Positions 4,588 to 58,159 of a stretch of DNA of 64,000 nt are shown one piece after another. The position numbers and the translations under genes are program-made. The notes under the pieces were generated by a model, which did not search any database, was not told the DNA's origin, and saw nothing but the letters and a program-made list of their open reading frames with translations. Position 1 is the stretch's first letter. Every line of letters begins with the position of its first letter. The stretch lies in NCBI GenBank assembly GCA_963668625.2, contig CAXXKA010000006.1:576001-640000 (forward strand), written 5' to 3'. This stretch comes from an uncultured candidate division Zixibacteria bacterium. Lineage in GTDB: Bacteria > Zixibacteria > MSB-5A5 > UBA10806 > 4484-95.

Positions 4588-4827
4588 TAACTTCATAAAA
4601 CAATATCATATTATCTTTCCCCACGCCAGAGGGGTTGTTGAAAAAGCCGTTTGCATGGGTCGCTGGGCGGACGAAGTCCTTTGTTCATTCTTTCCCGGCG
4701 ACATGCCGCATGAAATCAGGTGTCAGGAAAGTAACTATGTTATCAAAAGCTTGAGCCTCAGTCATTCGGATTGTATTGTTATTTTGACAAACATTCAACA
4801 ATCAACACGAACAAACAGGAGGCTCAA

Positions 4828-5886
4828 ATGCCATGTTACAACAAAATCGAGCGTGAAGCCAACACTATTTACGTTGGTATTGACGTTCATAAGCGGAGTT
4901 GGCATGTAACAATGCGAACAACTGAGCAAGAGTTATGGAAAGGCAGTATTGCAGCTGATTGGGAAGTATTGAAAAAAGTATTGGGGCGTTATTCCGATTG
5001 TGACATTTCGGTAGTTTACGAAGCCGGTTTTAGTGGTTTCTGGTTATATGACAAACTGGTAGCCTGGGGAGCGTCATGTATAGTGACTCCGCCGAGTTTG
5101 ATTCCTTCTGAATACGGCAATCGGGTCAAAACTGATCGCCTCGACAGTGCCAAGCTTGCTTTACTACTTTCCCGTAGTATGCTCAAGGCAGTATGGGTAC
5201 CTGATGTCGAAGCGCGTGGTCATCGCCAGGTATTGCGTCGCCGTCGCCAGTTGGTCAGCGACCGGGTCCGTATTCAATGCCGTATCAAGAGTGAGTTAGC
5301 CTGTTTCGGTCTATCTCTGCCGACAATTAGCGGCAAGTGGACGGAGACATTCGAACAGCATTTATGGCAGTTGCGTTTTAGTGATCGCTGGCAGACAGAG
5401 AGTTTTCAGAGGTTACTGACACAGTATCGGCTGGTGAGTGAATTGATTACTCAACAGACACGGTTATTGAAAGAATTGTCAAAACTGGATCGTTATCGGG
5501 AAGCGGTTGAGCGTCTACGTAGTGTTCCGGGCATCGGCTTGTTAACGGCGATGGAACTATTATTGGAGTTAGGGGACTTCAGCCGATTTAGTCGAGGAAG
5601 CCAATTGGCCGCCTACGTGGGCTTGACTCCAAGCCAATATTCCTCCGGTGACAAGGTTCGACTAGGACGAATCACCAGGATCGGCAAACCGCAGTTACGG
5701 TCGAATCTGATCGAAGCCTCCTGGATTTTGATCAGGAAGGATCCGGCCCAGGCTCAGCGTTATCAACAGCTCAAGTGGCGGTGTGGTTCCAAACGAGCCA
5801 TTGTGGCCAGTGCCCGCCGTCTACTGTTAATCGTACGGCGTCTGATGCTTGACCATCAGAGCTATCGAATCCAAACCGCAGCATAA
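4828..5886 (+). CDS. IS110 family DEDD recombinase/transposase
   Basis: YVGIDVHK, YEAG, KTDRLDS, SVPGIG, AYVGLTP...SSG; ATG 4828 follows AGGAGG. Confidence 0.95.
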   Translation: MPCYNKIEREANTIYVGIDVHKRSWHVTMRTTEQELWKGSIAADWEVLKKVLGRYSDCDISVVYEAGFSGFWLYDKLVAWGASCIVTPPSLIPSEYGNRVKTDRLDSAKLALLLSRSMLKAVWVPDVEARGHRQVLRRRRQLVSDRVRIQCRIKSELACFGLSLPTISGKWTETFEQHLWQLRFSDRWQTESFQRLLTQYRLVSELITQQTRLLKELSKLDRYREAVERLRSVPGIGLLTAMELLLELGDFSRFSRGSQLAAYVGLTPSQYSSGDKVRLGRITRIGKPQLRSNLIEASWILIRKDPAQAQRYQQLKWRCGSKRAIVASARRLLLIVRRLMLDHQSYRIQTAA

Positions 5887-5889
5887 AAA

Positions 5890-6110
5890 AGAGATAATTA
5901 GTTTACAATATCTGAGTTTGGAGAATGGCGAAGGAATCCTTGTGGCTTAACAACAGACCGCGCAGGAAAGGGTGTCATCTCCCCTGGTAATAATCTCGGA
6001 TTGATTAATTGTGGCTGTGTTTGAGGGCCAGACCACGAATAGCAGGGTGACTATTATCGGCAATGTCTAACAGTGGCAGCATGTTGTAGTTTAAACATGG
6101 GTATTCTGCG
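5890..6110 (+). ncRNA. Putative bridge/seek RNA of the first IS110 (ends approximate)
   Basis: Guides AGGAATCCT (5932-5940) and CAGGAAAG (5963-5970) match both target flanks; AATAGCAG (6038-6045) matches the element end. Confidence 0.7.
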
Positions 6111-6287
6111 TTTTATTAAGAAAAGGAGAAATCGATATAACAATACTAACCGAACAATATCACTTGACATGATACATAGCAGGATTCCTGACACCGCGAC
6201 TACCTAATCAGGGCTTTTTCAACAAGCCCCAGAGTTCAGGTTTTTAACCCCTGCTCAAATTAAATAATAACAAAAATAGTAGATAAA

Positions 6288-49805: not shown

Positions 49806-50177
49806 ATGTATTTACGATATGCACTGATTGGATTATTAGCAATAGTATTTGCGGCATCAATGGCATTTGCGGATGGCGGATTTATAGGAGATATTTACTA
49901 TAAGGATTGCGATTGTAGTACATCCCCGGATTATGATATCGTTAAAATCAAGGATCGTTCCACAGGACAAGTTGTTTTTGAACAACAAATGATCTACATT
50001 GTCTCGCCTGGTTATTGGACAGGCGCTCAAACATTCCCTCCCGGTTCGTATGATATATGGGTGCAACTTGGGCCAAATTCTGAATGCGATCATGGTGTAG
50101 TAAAAACTGTTATTCATGGGGCAACCACTCAAACTGTCAACCTTACTGTCTTAGGGCCGGTCGAACAGGGGCATTAA
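49806..50177 (+). CDS. Small secreted Cys-containing protein, cassette 1
   Basis: AAGGAGG RBS, signal MYLRYALIGLLAIVFAASMAFA|DG, two paralogues in the window. Confidence 0.85.
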   Translation: MYLRYALIGLLAIVFAASMAFADGGFIGDIYYKDCDCSTSPDYDIVKIKDRSTGQVVFEQQMIYIVSPGYWTGAQTFPPGSYDIWVQLGPNSECDHGVVKTVIHGATTQTVNLTVLGPVEQGH

Positions 50178-50248
50178 ATATTAATCCTATATGTTTACGT
50201 AGTCAGATATTTCTCTGACTACGTATACTTTAAAGATAGGAGATTTGA

Positions 50249-51958
50249 ATGTTTATCAAGCTTTTCATGCGGGTATTAATAGCCTGTTTCATTATATTTG
50301 AATACTTATATGCTCAATCACCTGATTTATTAAATGGCTGGCCCTATATGTTTGGTGACAGTTATAATATTAGGTCTACCCCTGTTTTCTTCGGAAATGC
50401 GTTTAACGATACTCTGGCTATCCTTTTCACCGGCGAACCATCCACAATAAGCAAGTTAAACCTGTGGAACGAATTGTTTGATGGCTGGCCAATTCGAGAG
50501 GACGGTGCCAGATTCAGTTATACGCCAATAGCTGTTGATATAGATCACGACTATAAAGATGAATTTGTTGTCCTGGGATTGATGGATCAATATCTCATAT
50601 ATGTTATTGATGATGATCGTTCTATCATGCCGGGATTTCCCCTGGCTTACGATCATAATAACTTACCTAATGTTTTTGATTTTGATAATGATGGTGAATA
50701 CGAATTAGCCTATCAATCGGTAAGCGAAAGTTTAATTTATTGTGTTGATGGAAACGGCCAAATGGAGCCCGGCTGGCCCGCCGCTTACCCGGCTGACTGG
50801 GAAGGTTTTAACGGCAGGGGCACTATTGGTGATATTAATTTAGATGGCTATAACGAATTCATTATAACCGGATTGAAAAAGATTTATGCCTATCAATATG
50901 ATGGTTCGCTTTTGAATGATTTTTGTTTGGAAACAATCGATACATCTTACTATTTCAATACGAATCGTGGGTGTTGTTGCGCGGATCTCGACGATGATGG
51001 CTATCTAGAATTCCCTTTGGCAGCATCTAAAAGAGTAGGCAATACATTGAATAGCTATGTAGCGATATACGAACATGACGGTCAAATAAAGGATGGCTGG
51101 CCTTTACATTATTACAGCAGTTATGTCTGGATTATGCCTACTCCTTCCGATATTGATGGTAACGGCACAGTTGAGATAGGCTATTCGGAAAACAGCCATA
51201 CGCATTTTGTTGATATTAGCGGTAATCATCTTGCTGGATGGCCAACTGTAATCATGGCGCCTGATAATCGATGCGCTTATGCAATGAGCGATATCATCAT
51301 TGTCGATATCGATGGTGATAGAGATTCGGAGATTTTTTTCGGCTGTAACTTTAATTATCTTGATCCAGAGTGGGGATTCTGCAGTTACTTGAATGGCTGC
51401 GATCACCATGGGCAGCCGCTTGAAGGTTTTCCTCTAAGAATTCGGGGAATGTCGGATTATCTTCCACCAGCATTTTTAAGAAATAAGGTCGATGGAAGGC
51501 TGCTAATTGGGATTTCCTCACAGAACACATATGATCCCGGAGTCGATACCGCATATCTGGAGGTCTTCCAGTTTCCCGACTCAACCGGCCCGCCCGATCA
51601 ATGGCCGATGCAGGGGCATGATAACCTGATGACGCGTAACTACAATTTCGTCGATCATGTCACCGCTATCCGGGATGATGAGCAACCGCTGCCTAAAAGC
51701 TATATCCTGACTCAGAACTACCCCAACCCGTTCAATGCTGCTACCACGATTGATTTCGCGCTGCCCAAACCCGAGCATGTCACGATTACGGTATACGATA
51801 TCCTCGGCCGCAGGGTAGAGGCGCTGGTGGATGAGGCATTACCGGCGGGGAACCATCAAGTGGCATGGCAAGCTGATGACTACGCCTCGGGGATCTATTT
51901 TTATCGCATGGAGGTCGGGGATTTGACGCTGAGCCGGAAGATGCTTTTGATTAAGTAA
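50249..51958 (+). CDS. Secreted FG-GAP/VCBS-repeat protein with a C-terminal sorting domain, cassette 1
   Basis: Six D.D.DG..E-type repeats alternating with GWP/GFP, WPMQGHD, QNYPNPFN domain. Confidence 0.88.
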   Translation: MFIKLFMRVLIACFIIFEYLYAQSPDLLNGWPYMFGDSYNIRSTPVFFGNAFNDTLAILFTGEPSTISKLNLWNELFDGWPIREDGARFSYTPIAVDIDHDYKDEFVVLGLMDQYLIYVIDDDRSIMPGFPLAYDHNNLPNVFDFDNDGEYELAYQSVSESLIYCVDGNGQMEPGWPAAYPADWEGFNGRGTIGDINLDGYNEFIITGLKKIYAYQYDGSLLNDFCLETIDTSYYFNTNRGCCCADLDDDGYLEFPLAASKRVGNTLNSYVAIYEHDGQIKDGWPLHYYSSYVWIMPTPSDIDGNGTVEIGYSENSHTHFVDISGNHLAGWPTVIMAPDNRCAYAMSDIIIVDIDGDRDSEIFFGCNFNYLDPEWGFCSYLNGCDHHGQPLEGFPLRIRGMSDYLPPAFLRNKVDGRLLIGISSQNTYDPGVDTAYLEVFQFPDSTGPPDQWPMQGHDNLMTRNYNFVDHVTAIRDDEQPLPKSYILTQNYPNPFNAATTIDFALPKPEHVTITVYDILGRRVEALVDEALPAGNHQVAWQADDYASGIYFYRMEVGDLTLSRKMLLIK

Positions 51959-52231
51959 CCGCATTAATTCCGATATTCAAGTACATTTAATATAGTAAGC
52001 CGCATCTAATATTCTTCTTGACATGTTTGTTAAGGCTGTTATATTGCTGTTAAGTACAAATCATCACGAAGGACAAACTTGACATGAACCGGCATAACCC
52101 CCCCCATTATATGGAGTTTATCCGTTCGCGGCCCGCCGTGTGATTATAATCCGTGTATCGATTTGGCATAAGGGGGATATAGAATAGTCAATAGTTTTTG
52201 GTCATACGATTTCTTTTAAGGAGGCAAACCA

Positions 52232-52609
52232 ATGTATTTACGATATGCACTGATTGGATTATTAGCAATAGTATTTACTGCATCAATGGCATTTGCGGAT
52301 GGCGGATTTCATGGAACAGTCAGCTATAGAGATTGTGAATGCCATTCTGGATCATGGGATAATGTCAGGATTGTAAATGATGCAACAGGTGCTGAACACA
52401 TTGCTCGTATTCATCTTACTTATCCTACATCAGGTACTTATGGGACACAACATACGACCTTCCCCGAAGGCTATTATTCAATATCCGTAGTACTTGGAGA
52501 CGGTTCTGATTGTGATCACAGCTATGTTCAGAAGGTTTATCATTCGGATGATCCAAACGACCAAACAGTTGATTTGGTGGTATTTGGCCCAACAAGTCAA
52601 CCCCACTAG
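52232..52609 (+). CDS. Small secreted Cys-containing protein, cassette 2
   Basis: Same signal peptide, divergent mature region. Confidence 0.85.
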   Translation: MYLRYALIGLLAIVFTASMAFADGGFHGTVSYRDCECHSGSWDNVRIVNDATGAEHIARIHLTYPTSGTYGTQHTTFPEGYYSISVVLGDGSDCDHSYVQKVYHSDDPNDQTVDLVVFGPTSQPH

Positions 52610-52682
52610 GATTTTATATCTATAAGGTCGCTTTTCTATTGAAAAGCGACCTTTATGAATTAATTTATTAGGAGGCCGAATA

Positions 52683-54392
52683 ATGAAAGATGTATCAAAA
52701 CTTGTAATTTTAATTCTATTAGCTAATACATTAGCGGTTTGCCAAGCTCCAGATTTACTGCTTGGATGGCCATACCGATGTGAAACTGGTTTAGGCTCTG
52801 TGGTAGTTACACCCAGGTTTGCAGAGCAAGATTCATTTGCGCTTTATTATAACAATCGTAATGGTGAAATCATTAAATTTCGCAGGGACAACTCATACTA
52901 TCCAAACTGGCCATTCGTAGAACCTGATGTTCCTTTTCTCCATACATCGATTTTGGCCGATGTTGATAATGATAGTATACAGGAGTTTATAGTCAATTCA
53001 TCTGATTATTTATTCATAGTTGATGATACGGGCGAATTATTATTCAACAGCCCCTACTACCTTGAAAATACATCCTCGGTTTCAATGGCAGATTATGACT
53101 CGGATGGAGAGTATGAGTTTATATGTTTTTCTCGTCAGCAACGAGAGATATATTGTACAGATATATATGGAAATAGTCAGGCAGGTTGGCCAGTGACGCT
53201 GCCAGAGGATGCATGGATTTCTATAGATGGAGCCGGTTCAATCGGTGATTTGGATGATGACGGCTATTTGGAAATAGTGATTCGCGGCTTTGATAATATC
53301 TATGCATATCGTTGTAACGGAGAGATGCAACCTGGTTTTCCTATTGAAATTATTGATACGGTATATAGCTACCTGGATTGGCATGGGCCATCTTTAGCCG
53401 ATCTTGATAACGATGGCAAATTGGAGATAATTACCGCCGCATGTACTCAAGTTGATTTGCCTTGCAGTTCATATATAGCGATTTATTGTTATGACGGCAG
53501 TCTTATGGAAAACTGGCCTAAATATTATAACGATAATACTCAAATTTTTCAGGTTCCCACCGTTGCTGATATTAATAATGATGGTCTATTGGAAATAGGT
53601 TTTACATTAGCTAATGAAAATGAAGGGGGGTTGTACTTTCTTGACATATACGGAGATATTTTGCCCGGTTGGCCTTCATATATTGTAGATACTACAGGAT
53701 GGCCGGTTATCTTCGAGTCTGATATAATCGTAGTTGATATTGATGGCGACAACGATTGCGAGATTTTTGGAGATTTTAATGTTGCTTTTCCTGATAGCAG
53801 TGGGCATGGATACTACAGTAAACTGTTTGGCTTAGATCATTTGGGGAATTTATTAAGCGGTTTTCCTATAATCGTTGAAGATGTTTCACTGTCTACACCT
53901 CCATCATTTCACCTCGATTCTAATTATAGAATGTTAATGGGGCTAAACTCTGCACATTATTATGTTGAGCAAGAAATAGACTCAGTATTTGTTGAGGTCT
54001 TCCAATTCCCCGATTCCACCGGCCCGCCTGACCAATGGCCGATGCAGGGGCATGATAATTTGATGACGCGTAATTACAATTTCGTAGATCGTGTCACCGC
54101 TATCCGGGATGATGAGCAACCGCTGCCTAAAAGCTATATCCTGACTCAGAACTACCCCAACCCGTTCAATGCCGCTACCACGATTGATTTCGCGCTGCCC
54201 AAACCCGAGCATGTCACGATTACGGTATACGATATCCTCGGCCGCAGGGTAGAGGCGCTGGTGGATGAGACATTACCGGCGGGTAACCATCAGGCGCTAT
54301 GGCAGGCTGATGATTACGCCTCGGGGATGTATTTTTATCGCATGGAGGCGGGGGATTTGACGCTGAGCCGGAAGATGTTGCTGATTAAGTAA
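52683..54392 (+). CDS. Secreted FG-GAP/VCBS-repeat protein with a C-terminal sorting domain, cassette 2
   Basis: Same architecture as 50249-51958. Confidence 0.88.
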   Translation: MKDVSKLVILILLANTLAVCQAPDLLLGWPYRCETGLGSVVVTPRFAEQDSFALYYNNRNGEIIKFRRDNSYYPNWPFVEPDVPFLHTSILADVDNDSIQEFIVNSSDYLFIVDDTGELLFNSPYYLENTSSVSMADYDSDGEYEFICFSRQQREIYCTDIYGNSQAGWPVTLPEDAWISIDGAGSIGDLDDDGYLEIVIRGFDNIYAYRCNGEMQPGFPIEIIDTVYSYLDWHGPSLADLDNDGKLEIITAACTQVDLPCSSYIAIYCYDGSLMENWPKYYNDNTQIFQVPTVADINNDGLLEIGFTLANENEGGLYFLDIYGDILPGWPSYIVDTTGWPVIFESDIIVVDIDGDNDCEIFGDFNVAFPDSSGHGYYSKLFGLDHLGNLLSGFPIIVEDVSLSTPPSFHLDSNYRMLMGLNSAHYYVEQEIDSVFVEVFQFPDSTGPPDQWPMQGHDNLMTRNYNFVDRVTAIRDDEQPLPKSYILTQNYPNPFNAATTIDFALPKPEHVTITVYDILGRRVEALVDETLPAGNHQALWQADDYASGMYFYRMEAGDLTLSRKMLLIK

Positions 54393-54665
54393 CCGCATTA
54401 ATTCCGATATTCAAGTACATTTAATATAGTAAGCCGCATCTAATATTCTTCTTGACATGTTTGTTAAGGTTGCTATATTGCTGTTAAGTACAAATCATCA
54501 CGAAGGACAAACTTGACATGAACCGGCATAACCCCCCCCATTATATGGAGTTTATCCGTTCGCGGCCCGCCGTGTGATTATAATCCGTGTATCGATTTGG
54601 CATAAGGGGGATATAGAATAGTCAATAGTTTTTGGTCATACGATTTCTTTTAAGGAGGCAAACCA

Positions 54666-55064
54666 ATGTATTTACGATATGCACTGATTGGATTATTAGC
54701 GGTATTATTCACGGCATCAATGGCGGCAGCGGATGGTCATTTTACAGGAGCTGTTTTATTCCCGAAACTCTGGACTACTGATTGTGAGTGGGAATCTGAA
54801 ATGTATGTGTATGTCTACAACGTGCTCACACCGGGGAACCGGGACAGGTATCTGGTTTCCTGTTGTTATTGCCCGACCCCTGATTACGAGCACGGTATGT
54901 TTACGACCGCAGATTATCCGCCGGGAACTTACGTATTTGAGTTAATTTTACCTGCAAGCTCGGATTGCTATGTGACGAAACCTGATCCTCAATTTGTCCA
55001 TGGCATGGCCAATCAATCTATTTCTATAAAGGTTGAGCCCAGAACCCAGGGACAACCAGATTAA
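54666..55064 (+). CDS. Small secreted Cys-containing protein, cassette 3
   Basis: Same signal start, most divergent mature region, with CCYC. Confidence 0.85.
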   Translation: MYLRYALIGLLAVLFTASMAAADGHFTGAVLFPKLWTTDCEWESEMYVYVYNVLTPGNRDRYLVSCCYCPTPDYEHGMFTTADYPPGTYVFELILPASSDCYVTKPDPQFVHGMANQSISIKVEPRTQGQPD

Positions 55065-55149
55065 CTTTAATTATTAACATTATGCCGCCGGTATTATTAC
55101 CGGCGGCATTATTACAAATATGTAAGGAGATGGTACGATAAAAGCATCT

Positions 55150-55350
55150 TGCTAATCTATTCTGTTGGTGTTAGAGCTTCGGTAATGAATTTCTAACTGG
55201 AGCGGATAGGTTATAGGCTGAACTGAATGCTTGAGGCCAGACCTCGTAAAGGAGATTAATCAGACCTGTAACCGAATTGCCACCATAAGGCAAAGACCTT
55301 GAATAGGAGTTTGGTAGGCGCCGACAGAGAGTCTGCTCCAGTGATAACCA
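55150..55350 (+). ncRNA. Putative bridge RNA of the second IS110 (ends approximate)
   Basis: CTGAATGCT-tGAGG..agaCCTCg-TAAAGGAG (55223-55254) and TTGCCACCA-tAAGG..agaCCTTg-AATAGGAG (55277-55309). Confidence 0.65.
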
Positions 55351-55367
55351 TAGAATGGAGCAAGAAG

Positions 55368-56381
55368 ATGAGGTACTTAGGAGTAGACCTTCACACAAAC
55401 AGTTTGACCGTGTGTTACCTGACAGCCGGTGGTCGGGAGAGGATCAAGGAGTATCGGCTAAAGGATCTAAAGGAATTTAAACGAGGATTAAAAAAGACGG
55501 ATTGTGTAGCGGTTGAGGCCACTGGCAACACTCGTTATTTCGTTGATGAGATATCGCATTTGGTCAAGCGAGTTGTTGTCGTCGATCCGAACAAATTTGA
55601 GATAATCAAATCATCAGTCAGTAAGACGGATGAAAACGATGCCAGGAACTTAGCCTATTTTATGAGCAAAGACATGTTGCCGAAAGCCCGATTAAAGACG
55701 AAAGATAAAGCGCAGATCAGTTCACTTGTTGGGACACGGGACAAGCTGGTCAAGTTACGTACAGCTTTGAAGAATAAAATACACAACATACTCAATCATC
55801 ATGGTATCAAGAGTAAAAAGGAGGCCTACTCCAGCAACAAGAGTTTGGAGCGGGTTCTAAAGATGAATTTTGATGAGGTTGTTTCTGTTGAGCTTGAGGT
55901 ATTGGTTGATCAGATTCGCAGTTTGAATGAGGGGATAAAAAAGCTGGACAAACAGATAGAGGATCAGGGTCGCAAGTTGAACGGGCATAAGAACCTGACC
56001 AGCATCAAAGGAATCGGCAGCAAATCAGCTACAGTGTTGCTTTCGGTAATTGGTGATGTTGCTGATTTTTCGGACAAAGATAAATTGGCCTCATATTTTG
56101 GCGTAGTGCCGCGAGTTTCCAATTCAAACGAGATTCAGCATCATGGTCGGATTACCAAGCGTGGTTCTAAGATTGGTCGGACTACACTGGTGCAGTGTAC
56201 GCTTGTTGCCATACGATATAACCATTACTTGAGTAAATATTACAATCGTATAAAAAACCGTCGTGGCAGCGGTAAGGCTATCATTGCCACAGCCAGAAAA
56301 TTACTGGGAATAATCTATGACACCTTGAAAAATAATTGGGTGTTTGAAGATTTCCCTAACTTTGTGTTAGCAAACAGATAA
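55368..56381 (+). CDS. IS110 family DEDD recombinase/transposase
   Basis: YLGVDLH, VEATG, KTDENDA, SIKGIG, SYFGVVP..SNS; ATG 55368 follows GGAG. Confidence 0.95.
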   Translation: MRYLGVDLHTNSLTVCYLTAGGRERIKEYRLKDLKEFKRGLKKTDCVAVEATGNTRYFVDEISHLVKRVVVVDPNKFEIIKSSVSKTDENDARNLAYFMSKDMLPKARLKTKDKAQISSLVGTRDKLVKLRTALKNKIHNILNHHGIKSKKEAYSSNKSLERVLKMNFDEVVSVELEVLVDQIRSLNEGIKKLDKQIEDQGRKLNGHKNLTSIKGIGSKSATVLLSVIGDVADFSDKDKLASYFGVVPRVSNSNEIQHHGRITKRGSKIGRTTLVQCTLVAIRYNHYLSKYYNRIKNRRGSGKAIIATARKLLGIIYDTLKNNWVFEDFPNFVLANR

Positions 56382-56419
56382 CTGAAATTTGGAGTAGACT
56401 TTTATCATAGGAGAGTTTT

Positions 56420-58159
56420 ATGAATAGAATAATATTATTGGCCGTGTTGCTGTTTATATTCAGCTTCTCGGATTCATTCTCTCAGGTGCCTGAACTTCTA
56501 GATGGCTGGCCTTATAGCCGTTTGCTAACCTCATACGCCGAACAAAACATTCCGCGGTTTGCATGCGATGCTGATTTAGCGATATTTTACAGCACGCCCT
56601 CAGGCGATAATAATAAATTCCACATGAATGGCTCCTATTACAACGGTTGGCCTGTCTACGAGGATGAAGTTCATATACACGGAAGAATAACGATTGTGGA
56701 TTTGGATCACGATGGTAAGGATGAGTTGGTGGCAAACGGTTATTTCGTTAGTGATATTCCTGCCAGAGTTCTTAATAAACTATATATCATAGATGATGAC
56801 GGCACGATCTTTCCCGATTTTCCAATTATATACAGCACCATAATTTGTCCGAATGTAGCCGATTTCGATGCTGACGGCGAATATGAATTGATATTTTACG
56901 ATGACGAAGTAGAATTAATCTATTGCATCGACAGGTTCGGTAATCCTGAACCGGGCTGGCCGGTGGATTTACCTGATGATATTTATCACCAGTCCGTGAA
57001 CGGTGGTGCTGCGGTTGGTGACCTTGATCTTGATGGATTCTTAGAGTATATAGTTAAAAGTAATGACTGTGTTTATGCCTTTCGCTATGATGGGACAATG
57101 ATCGAGGATTTCCTTATAAAAACCATTGAATATCCTTATTTTTTCGAGGCTCATAACGCTGTTACTCTTGGTGATGTTGATTTTGATGGGTATCTGGAGA
57201 TAGTTTTATCGGCACAGAGAGTCACGCTGGATTCCATCGCGAGTTATGTTGCGATTTACGAACATACCGGAGAGCCAAAGGAGGGCTGGCCGATCATGTT
57301 CCCCGATGCTTATGATTGGAATATGCCGACGATCGCGGATATCAATTCTGATGGTATCCCCGAAATAGGCTTTTCAATGGATGTATATACTTATTTTGTT
57401 GATGTTGATGGCAATCCTCTTGATGGTTGGCCGGTAGAATTTTATAAGCCGGATGGCCGGCCAAGAATGCCGATGTCGGATATAATAGCCGTTGATGTAG
57501 ATGGTGACAATGATTGTGAGATATTTTTCGATTTCAACACTCAGTACTGGGATCCTGAAAATGAAGATATTTACAGTTGTTTCTATGGCTCGGATCATCA
57601 CGGGCAAGATTTGCCCGGATATCCAGTGATTGTCGAAGGTTCCAGCGTGGGGTGTCCGCCAATTTTCCATTTTGACAGTTCTGATAATCAATATTATATG
57701 GCGCTTAGCACTCTGGTGGGATATCCCGATAGTATTTATACGATAGATTCGGTATATCTGGAGGTCTTCCAGTTTCCCGATTCCACCGGGCCGCCCGATC
57801 AATGGCCGATGCAGGGGCATGATAATTTGATGACGCGTAATTACAATTTCGTAGATCGTGTCACCGCTATCCGGGATGATGAGCAACCGCTGCCTAAAAG
57901 CTATATCCTGACTCAGAACTACCCCAACCCGTTCAATGCCGCTACCACGATTGATTTCGCGCTGCCCAAACCCGAGCATGTCACGATTACGGTATACGAT
58001 ATCCTCGGCCGCAGGGTAGAGGTGCTGGTGGATGAGACATTACCGGCGGGTAACCATCAGGCGCTATGGCAGGCTGATGATTACGCCTCGGGGATGTATT
58101 TTTATCGCATGGAGGCGGGTGATTTGACGCTGAGCCGGAAGATGTTGCTGATTAAGTAG
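56420..58159 (+). CDS. Secreted FG-GAP/VCBS-repeat protein with a C-terminal sorting domain, cassette 3
   Basis: Same architecture; RBS regenerated by the IS end. Confidence 0.88.
   Translation: MNRIILLAVLLFIFSFSDSFSQVPELLDGWPYSRLLTSYAEQNIPRFACDADLAIFYSTPSGDNNKFHMNGSYYNGWPVYEDEVHIHGRITIVDLDHDGKDELVANGYFVSDIPARVLNKLYIIDDDGTIFPDFPIIYSTIICPNVADFDADGEYELIFYDDEVELIYCIDRFGNPEPGWPVDLPDDIYHQSVNGGAAVGDLDLDGFLEYIVKSNDCVYAFRYDGTMIEDFLIKTIEYPYFFEAHNAVTLGDVDFDGYLEIVLSAQRVTLDSIASYVAIYEHTGEPKEGWPIMFPDAYDWNMPTIADINSDGIPEIGFSMDVYTYFVDVDGNPLDGWPVEFYKPDGRPRMPMSDIIAVDVDGDNDCEIFFDFNTQYWDPENEDIYSCFYGSDHHGQDLPGYPVIVEGSSVGCPPIFHFDSSDNQYYMALSTLVGYPDSIYTIDSVYLEVFQFPDSTGPPDQWPMQGHDNLMTRNYNFVDRVTAIRDDEQPLPKSYILTQNYPNPFNAATTIDFALPKPEHVTITVYDILGRRVEVLVDETLPAGNHQALWQADDYASGMYFYRMEAGDLTLSRKMLLIK

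Follow-up and report, generated by a model that had tools for sequence, protein, structure and literature searches.

The locus and the element

The stretch of DNA considered here, referred to as the window, comprises 64,000 nucleotides (nt) from an uncultured candidate division Zixibacteria bacterium (GenBank assembly GCA_963668625.2, contig CAXXKA010000006.1, positions 576,001 to 640,000), and all coordinates given below are positions within it. At 55130-56413 on the + strand lies an insertion sequence (IS) of the IS110 family, which splits the Shine-Dalgarno (SD) sequence of a large host gene. Taken together, the evidence makes it very probable that this is an active, RNA-guided element and that its bridge RNA is programmed for the SD sequence itself. 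The element and its immediate surroundings contain the following features.

55123-55129, + strand: left half of the host SD site (TAAGGAG), comprising the left target and the shared core; defined by the variation at position -7 and by positions -7 to -5, which track the loop 1 guide in relatives
55130-56413, + strand: IS110-family IS, 1284 bp in the chosen register; defined by copy comparison and by a unitig at about ten times the flank depth
55131-55139, + strand: TGn and -10 hexamer TACGAT of the putative joined-end promoter; 33 of 39 distinct end pairs have TG as left-end bases 2-3
55134-55144, + strand: left subterminal inverted repeat TACGATAAAAG, complementary to the right repeat at 10 of 11 positions
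55368-56381, + strand: transposase gene, 337 amino acids (aa); profile matches, and relatives align from residue 1-2
56395-56400, + strand: -35-like hexamer TAGACT of the putative junction promoter, a hexamer conserved in the end pairs
56399-56409, + strand: right subterminal inverted repeat CTTTTATCATA, which pairs with the left repeat
56409-56413, + strand: right-end AGGAG, the SD for the downstream gene, with ATG 5-7 nt further on in all 11 genomic copies
56420-58159, + strand: downstream host gene, the large gene of cassette 3; its product is an FG-GAP protein of 579 aa that has a T9SS C-terminal sorting domain

Profile searches identified the 337-aa product as an IS110-family transposase, or bridge recombinase. 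The protein matches Pfam DEDD_Tnp_IS110 (PF01548, 5.7e-13) and Transposase_20 (PF02371, 5.4e-22), and the layout of an N-terminal DEDD/RuvC-like domain and a C-terminal Transposase_20 domain is the pattern of the IS110 family. It also scored 242.7 bits against the NCBIfam model NF033542 ("IS110 family RNA-guided transposase"), for which the cut-off is 140. Matches to PDB chains of IS621 and ISCro4 were found at an E value of about 1e-12, chiefly over the C-terminal domain, which points to a distant likeness.

The genome (4.3 Mb in 10 contigs) carries 11 copies of the element with 99.7-100% identity. Comparison of the copies gave a common block at 55124-56413, and in a public sequencing run a unitig of 1290 nt with exactly these ends was found at a depth of 51, compared with 4-5 in the flanks. 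On the left, every copy reads AAGGAG followed by ATGGTACGAT, and on the right every copy terminates in ...TTTATCATAGGAG. Positions -6 to -1 are invariant across the 11 copies. Position -7, directly before AAGGAG, is A in nine copies and T in two, so this base belongs to the flank and not to the element. As AGGAG is present at both junctions (55125-55129 and 56409-56413), the register of the element is ambiguous by up to 5 nt leftward. In the register 55130-56413, the 11-nt inverted repeats are set in by four bases from either end, and in relatives both repeats change in step. The non-coding DNA is distributed unevenly, with 238 nt 5' of the transposase gene versus 32 nt 3' of it. On the - strand, the longest open reading frame (ORF) within the element, and the only one of at least 60 aa, encodes 75 aa.

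A previous interpretation of the window, made from its letters alone (the sequence-only reading), had placed the element at 55125-56422. This interval overruns into the downstream start codon. That reading also proposed that the insertion splits the SD of the large gene of cassette 3 and that the right end restores AGGAG at the same spacing; both hold, and the empty site would read TAAGGAG-AGTTTTATG.

Insertion sites in the genome

In all 11 copies, AAGGAG at the left junction is accompanied on the right by ...CATAGGAG and then by ATG on the transposase strand. Five copies have a spacing of 5 nt from GGAG of the right-end ATAGGAG to ATG, another five have 6 nt and the remaining copy has 7 nt. 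The transposase is co-oriented with the downstream gene in 11 of 11 copies, and nine of the downstream ORFs encode 116-758 aa. The sequence-only reading had asked whether other copies lie just upstream of start codons, which is the case for each of them. As a background set, 851 unoccupied [AT]AAGGAG sites of the same genome, all outside the element, were used. ATG at a spacing of 5-7 nt follows 188 of these (22.1%), which gives a P of about 6e-8 for 11 out of 11, and 286 (33.6%) have, within 3-11 nt downstream, a start codon that opens an ORF of at least 80 aa.

At least six of the 11 downstream proteins begin with signal-peptide-like or lipoprotein-like N-termini.

The bridge RNA

Relatives of the element were collected by a transposase scan of one genome per species, and the best 80 of 160 were used (52-64% identity). 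They are labelled as coming from more than a dozen phyla.

As a single-sequence fold, the 238-nt leader of the element folds better than shuffled sequences (z = -5.44). An RNA alignment was built from 28 of 41 distinct leaders; the 13 that were omitted had large insertions or were near-duplicates. The resulting structure consists of a basal stem and two modules, each made of a stem, an internal loop and a hairpin, with 41 pairs in total and 85.7% of cells paired. Compensatory changes on both sides were found in 20 of the 41 pairs, none of 500 shuffles reached any of these measures, and slid controls were only 30-46% paired. A U-G pair that is invariant in 28 of 28 sequences indicates + strand transcription of the RNA. 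A search of 55000-56500 against Rfam at E values up to 1 returned no family; the sole match, osmY at E 0.88, was rejected as chance. The parts of the RNA and its guides are located as follows.

55197-55341, + strand: bridge RNA core, with basal stem 55197-55207 paired to 55331-55341 and enclosing two internal-loop modules; fold and covariation
55209-55273, + strand: loop 1, target-binding module, with variable 5' side 55222-55231, hairpin 55232-55246 and 3' side 55247-55259
55248-55256, + strand: left-target guide AAAGGAG (55248-55254), in the same sense as the host SD, followed by AT (55255-55256), which equals the first two bases of the element
55277-55320, + strand: loop 2, donor-binding module; inner hairpin 98.6% paired, three covarying pairs
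55279-55284, + strand: right-donor guide GCCACC, antisense to the last G of GGAG and left-end bases 1-5; covariation
55303-55309, + strand: left-donor guide ATAGGAG on the 3' side of loop 2, in the same sense as the right end

In loop 1, the outer stem is 96.8% paired with five covarying pairs, and the hairpin is 90.7% paired.

The motif GGAGTAGAC, which reads GGAGCGGAT at the left site here, forms the 5' strand of the basal stem (55197-55207). It recurs just inside the right end (56391-56399), where it overlaps the -35 hexamer, and the same arrangement is found in relatives.

Guides and their covariation with DNA

The 3' side of loop 1 reads G-TAAAGGAG-AT (55246-55256). The target-loop sequence TAAAGGAG had been picked out by the sequence-only reading and is indeed located in the leader at 55247-55254. 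The loop 1 guide was compared with 61 distinct left flanks. Where the guide departs from the consensus, the flank follows at position -7 in 13 of 17 cases, at -6 in two of two and at -5 in five of five, and the observed agreement was reached by none of 20000 permutations. At position -8, guide and flank show no agreement across these 61 flanks. Examples of guide and flank pairs are TAGAGGAG with TAGAGGAG, TAATGGAG with AAATGGAG and TTAAGGAG with TTAAGGAG. In addition, the two bases 3' of the guide (AT, AC or CT) track bases 1-2 of the left end, with a single exception (L066).

The donor loop covaries with both ends of the element. For the right-donor guide, left-end base 2 (T or C) pairs with A or G in 19 of 20 combinations and base 4 (G or A) pairs with C or U in all 20, and the pairing of GCCACC with the left end was recovered independently by RNAalifold. 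Its partner DNA lies upstream of the -10 box, and this covariation is therefore read as RNA-DNA recognition. The left-donor guide agrees with the right end in 61 of 61 cases (ATAGGAG with ATAGGAG in 47 of 47, ATGGGAG with ATGGGAG in 14 of 14). In the element itself, the donor guide AATAGGAG (55302-55309) matches the right end at seven of eight bases, just as had been proposed. Within the donor loop the antisense guide (55279-55284) stands 5' of the sense guide (55303-55309); the sense guide of the target loop likewise occupies the 3' side.

The 5' side of loop 1 is hypervariable among relatives, and right flanks vary freely among copies of one element. The only sequence common to every target and donor is GGAG, which is the minimum across the relatives. 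A second target guide, CTGAATGCT with a CT core, had been suggested from the letters alone; it falls on this hypervariable side, and target and donor have GGAG in common, so CTGAATGCT and its CT core were dropped. On the same grounds, a right-target guide placed by analogy with loop 2 was rejected, as the flanks that it predicts misfit the Robiginitomaculum and Spirochaetota copies when compared by eye.

Relatives across phyla

The right ends of nearly all relatives are CATAGGAG or CATGGGAG. Right flanks with enough sequence numbered 73 distinct ones, of which 69 belong to elements without the guide ACACGGAG and are referred to as non-retargeted. A start codon lies 3-12 nt downstream in all 69 of these (ATG in 67), and 57 are followed by an ORF of at least 60 aa or one open to the end of the locus. 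Among 3250 random positions in the same loci, the corresponding figures were 38.5% for a start codon, 16.7% for ATG and 11.5% for the ORF measure. The spacing from SD to start codon peaks at 6-7 nt in the relatives. With the 11 genomic copies and the covariation of guide and flank, these 69 flanks bear out the proposal, already contained in the sequence-only reading, that the element is programmed for SD sequences.

A relative on a finished plasmid of a cultured Tardibacter has the flank CGAAGGAG, the guide TGAAGGAG-CT and a left end that starts with CT; its right end is CATAGGAG, and ATG follows 7 nt later. It lies between a strawberry-notch gene and an ORF whose translation, judged by eye, looks ParB-like. 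It was the only close relative (52.7%) in a search of a plasmid collection, in which all remaining matches were below 34%.

Four copies in Acidobacteriaceae bins carry the loop 1 guide ACACGGAG. All four lie inside CACCACGGAG (CACGGAG) repeats, and none of them has a start codon nearby. In a quick tree of 70 rows, which comprised this clade and one outgroup and carried approximate likelihood-ratio (SH-aLRT) support only, two of the ACACGGAG-guide copies were sister, with a support of 100, to SD-targeting elements deep within the clade. The window also contains a second, unrelated IS110 element at 4727-6186, which has 26% identity to the transposase and scores 226 bits against NF033542. Its five genome copies each lie within a repeat of about 100 bp (about 25 occurrences) with palindromic flanks, and it is a classical repeat-targeting relative in the same host. 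Because of the retargeted ACACGGAG copies and this unrelated repeat-targeting element in the same host, SD targeting is written in the RNA guide and goes with that guide rather than with the host or the protein family.

Some relatives depart from the common anatomy. In L026, the last 16 bases of the element occur twice in tandem ahead of the host start codon, which could be the leftover of a second insertion or an aberrant event. Eight relatives (L014, L015, L017, L019, L020, L031, L048 and L077) have 190-360 nt of extra DNA between the transposase stop and the conserved right end. It is partly G+C-rich and hairpin-forming, and may be passenger DNA or a second non-coding region. The Spirochaetota copy L074 sits after the second GGAG of AAGGAGGAG, where flank and guide disagree at -7 and -6, owing either to insertion out of register or to a mismatch that was tolerated.

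Proposed mechanism and junction promoter

From the anatomy, the distribution of the copies and the covariation both within the RNA and between guides and DNA, we infer a route of insertion in which the chemistry of pairing, the exact crossover point and transcription are all deduced. The AAAGGAG guide of loop 1 would recognise the SD of the target, and ATAGGAG (for the right end) and GCCACC (for the left end) in loop 2 would jointly recognise the joined ends of an excised circle. The crossover probably falls within GGAG, because GGAG is the sole stretch common to all targets and donors. After insertion, the left junction would consist of host AAA, GGAG and the element, and the right junction of element ATA, GGAG, the host spacer and ATG, with the native distance kept. 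The "rebuilding" of the SD would then be a built-in consequence of the choice of core. Since the target is asymmetric, every copy is co-oriented with the gene. Hardly any of the sequence right of the target is read, so that a single guide can address hundreds of sites in one genome.

Co-orientation would allow host promoters to transcribe the bridge RNA and the transposase. No + strand terminator-like site was found within the element, and nothing like one appears to stand between the transposase and the host gene, which would keep its SD. With no such terminator, read-through from a host promoter via leader and transposase into the host gene is plausible.

The joined ends would also create a promoter. 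As had been noted from the letters of the circle junction, a -35 hexamer TAGACT (56395-56400) would be separated by 17 nt from the -10 hexamer TACGAT (55134-55139), with TGn across the joined ends. A hexamer that agrees with TTGACA at four or more of six bases was found 13-14 nt from the right end in 37 of the 39 distinct end pairs, compared with a background of 11.7%. In these 37 pairs, the spacer between -35 and -10 would be 17-18 nt.

Explanations for the confinement to gene starts

Several points count against the reading of this element as an active IS programmed for SD sequences, or limit how much that programming explains. Only about 7 nt are read by the guide, and sites of this kind lie away from gene starts in two thirds of cases; the guide alone does not explain 11 of 11 copies, and either a fast loss of harmful insertions or a further cue is needed. 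T at position +1 was found in nine of 11 copies, compared with 23% of comparable free sites (P about 1e-4). This bias is absent from other multi-copy families and hints that one more base is read here. A search of the 5' side of loop 1 yielded no guide for the right half of the target. Two of the 11 downstream ORFs in the genome encode only 34 and 39 aa, and those of relatives fall short of 60 aa in 12 of 69 cases. Metagenome bins are the source of most relatives, and the search patterns fixed GAG in both the guide and the left junction, which leaves positions -3 to -1 uninformative. The ends of the element are taken from the comparison of copies and its activity from their near-identity, and the assembled contigs of four sequencing runs contained neither an empty-site joint nor a circle joint.

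The strongest rival explanation is survivorship without a further cue, a serious contender that falls only somewhat short of being probable. The guide would accept any 7-mer resembling AAAGGAG, insertions within genes would be lost, and those in SD sequences would be tolerated. This is in line with a guide of about 7 nt and with right flanks that are free to vary among copies of one element, and the SD would be regenerated automatically if the crossover lies within GGAG. IS900, an IS110-family element, is likewise described in PMC8141618 as rarely found within coding sequence. However, the copies are 99.7-100% identical and hence recent, yet none of the 11 is located in the roughly 78% of sites without ATG at 5-7 nt. 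All 69 flanks of the non-retargeted relatives are at starts as well, and selection would need to be both fast and complete, even in dispensable genes and non-coding DNA.

The SD-programmed reading can be extended further. The relatives might form a bridge-RNA clade that spans phyla and is specialised in parasitising translation start sites, with a 7-nt guide that mimics the SD and reads the left half-site only, with expression driven by the host, with regeneration of the SD and with a further cue. This wider proposal is put forward tentatively, as something possible rather than expected. That SD targeting provides a safe harbour, as was assumed in the sequence-only reading, is plausible, and it may benefit the host; as an alternative to an evolved safe harbour, a crossover in GGAG combined with the loss of harmful insertions might produce the same pattern.

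It was further suggested from the letters that the copy in cassette 3 is a reversible switch, in which precise excision restores the site and turns the FG-GAP/T9SS gene on. The insertion does lie between a hairpin after the small gene and the start of the large gene, in one of three paralogous cassettes, and excision of IS621 by the complex of recombinase and bridge RNA has been documented in the parts of the IS621 literature considered. Nothing in the present data supports a switch, however, and it appears very unlikely. The copy belongs to a set of 11 identical insertions that lie at unrelated genes, and no contig of the four runs joins 55129 to 56414. In the same literature, excision of IS621 is less efficient than insertion, and the abstract of a 2026 preprint reports that it mostly leaves the donor site intact. 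Moreover, the gene keeps its SD with no + strand terminator upstream and may not be off at all.

Least credible of all is the view that the left AAGGAG is the element's own, or AGGAG a target-site duplication of 4-5 bp, with start-proximal sites being picked by protein or DNA structure instead of RNA: it would fit AAGGAG at 11 of 11 left junctions, the constancy of -6 to -1 and the lack of an empty site in the run contigs, but position -7 varies among copies and tracks the guide in relatives, -6 and -5 also track the guide variants TAGAGGAG, TAATGGAG and ACACGGAG, the left flanks contain no other GGAG just upstream, so that the genes would have been without an SD before insertion, and the retargeted copies quit gene starts entirely.

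Comparison with known IS110-family elements

The SD-programmed element has much in common with IS621 and IS110-type elements, as set out in the relevant parts of Durrant et al. 2024 (PMC11208160) and Hiraizumi et al. 2024 (PMC11208158). These common traits are a recombinase with DEDD/RuvC-like and Tnp domains, a non-coding region upstream of the gene and an RNA with target-binding and donor-binding internal loops that each read both strands. They also include two-nucleotide extensions that match the partner DNA after exchange, like the handshake guides, and a promoter that in the present element would be rebuilt at the joined ends. In contrast to IS621, which has the reverse order of guides within its loops, the present element probably has its shared core within GGAG rather than CT and carries subterminal inverted repeats; it leaves the right target half almost unread, and its target is an SD and not a repeat element.

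Other traits are those of the IS1111-type seekRNA elements ISEc11, ISPa11 and ISKpn4, as far as they are covered in the passages used from Siddiquee et al. 2024 (PMC11187229). Those elements have 11-13 bp subterminal inverted repeats, their relatives show natural reprogramming, as is seen here, and in their RNAs the complement of the top strand lies 5' of the complement of the bottom strand. The order of guides in the donor loop here is IS1111-like, with the antisense guide first and the sense guide second. IS1111 elements usually have their non-coding region downstream, with few relatives such as ISMtsp17 having it upstream (PMC11187229), whereas the element described here has it upstream. 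Eight bases lie outside the repeats (4 + 4, in a register that can be shifted by up to 5 nt), compared with 7 + 3 in IS1111. The mix of IS1111-type subterminal repeats and an IS110-type upstream non-coding end, which had been pointed out in the sequence-only reading, extends to the guide order. The layout of the bridge RNA in this clade, in which an upstream leader is joined by IS1111-like guide order and subterminal repeats, thus appears to lie between the two described types.

Targeting of translation starts is not new in kind, as IS900 of Mycobacterium avium subsp. paratuberculosis provides a precedent. According to the passages on IS900 in PMC8141618, its insertion motif CATGNNNNNNTCTCCTT holds an SD and a start codon, a trait in common with the element described here. 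The same passages describe insertion in one fixed orientation and cite a report from 1997 (Doran et al.) that IS900 targets translation initiation signals. Two differences emerge from them. The IS900 transposase runs against the target gene, with the motif being the complement, whereas it runs with the gene in 11 of 11 copies here, and IS900 has a long opposite-strand ORF, hed, where only the 75-aa ORF is found here. These passages contain neither an account of an RNA guide nor regeneration of the SD. The literature on targeting of SD or ribosome-binding sites by IS110 elements yielded only the work on IS900 and no bridge RNA that encodes an SD, supplementary target logos not being covered.

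Implications

If the wider proposal of a clade of start-site parasites is true, every strong ribosome-binding site would be a landing pad. Fixed co-orientation would let host promoters drive both bridge RNA and transposase, which would solve the weak expression described for chromosomal IS621, and the host gene would become the distal gene of a new operon with the transposase rather than being silenced. The same logic, mirrored, may underlie IS900, and the excess at true gene starts would reflect a further cue, for example transcription or an open complex at 5' untranslated regions.

The element itself is a natural case in which the guide of a programmable recombinase is set to a universal functional signal and not to a repeat. 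It illustrates how a short guide for one half-site can open up hundreds of permissible sites in a genome, how insertion at a gene start can proceed without removal of the ribosome-binding site, and how natural retargeting takes place through changes of the guide. For elements of the IS900 type, it offers a testable explanation of start-site preference at the level of RNA. For annotation, copies of the clade mark true start codons and may create co-transcripts of transposase and host gene.

Further observations

The contigs of run X1 have loose ends at 55240 and 55295, and some of them belong to a diverged relative whose guide region is the same and whose loop 1 5' side differs. This relative is absent from the 10-contig genome, and the sample of run X1 may contain more than one organism or strain. 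One "skip" joint from 55142 to 56389 with a side of 20 letters, together with X5 pieces in the run contigs, looks like diverged relatives with the same ends.

The host gene downstream of the element belongs to an array of three tandem cassettes (49806-58159), each encoding a small protein of 123-132 aa and, after it, an FG-GAP protein of 569-579 aa that carries a T9SS C-terminal sorting domain. The small proteins have a signal-peptide-like start and no Pfam match, and the small gene of cassette 3 is located at 54666-55064. The insertion is present in the third cassette only. In cassette 1, the SD region at 50236-50244 reads ATAGGAGAT, a run of nine bases identical to the right end of the element when joined to its first two bases. 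ATAGGAG occurs at 271 other sites in the genome, 23 of them at gene starts, and the match in cassette 1 is likely due to chance rather than a footprint of the element.

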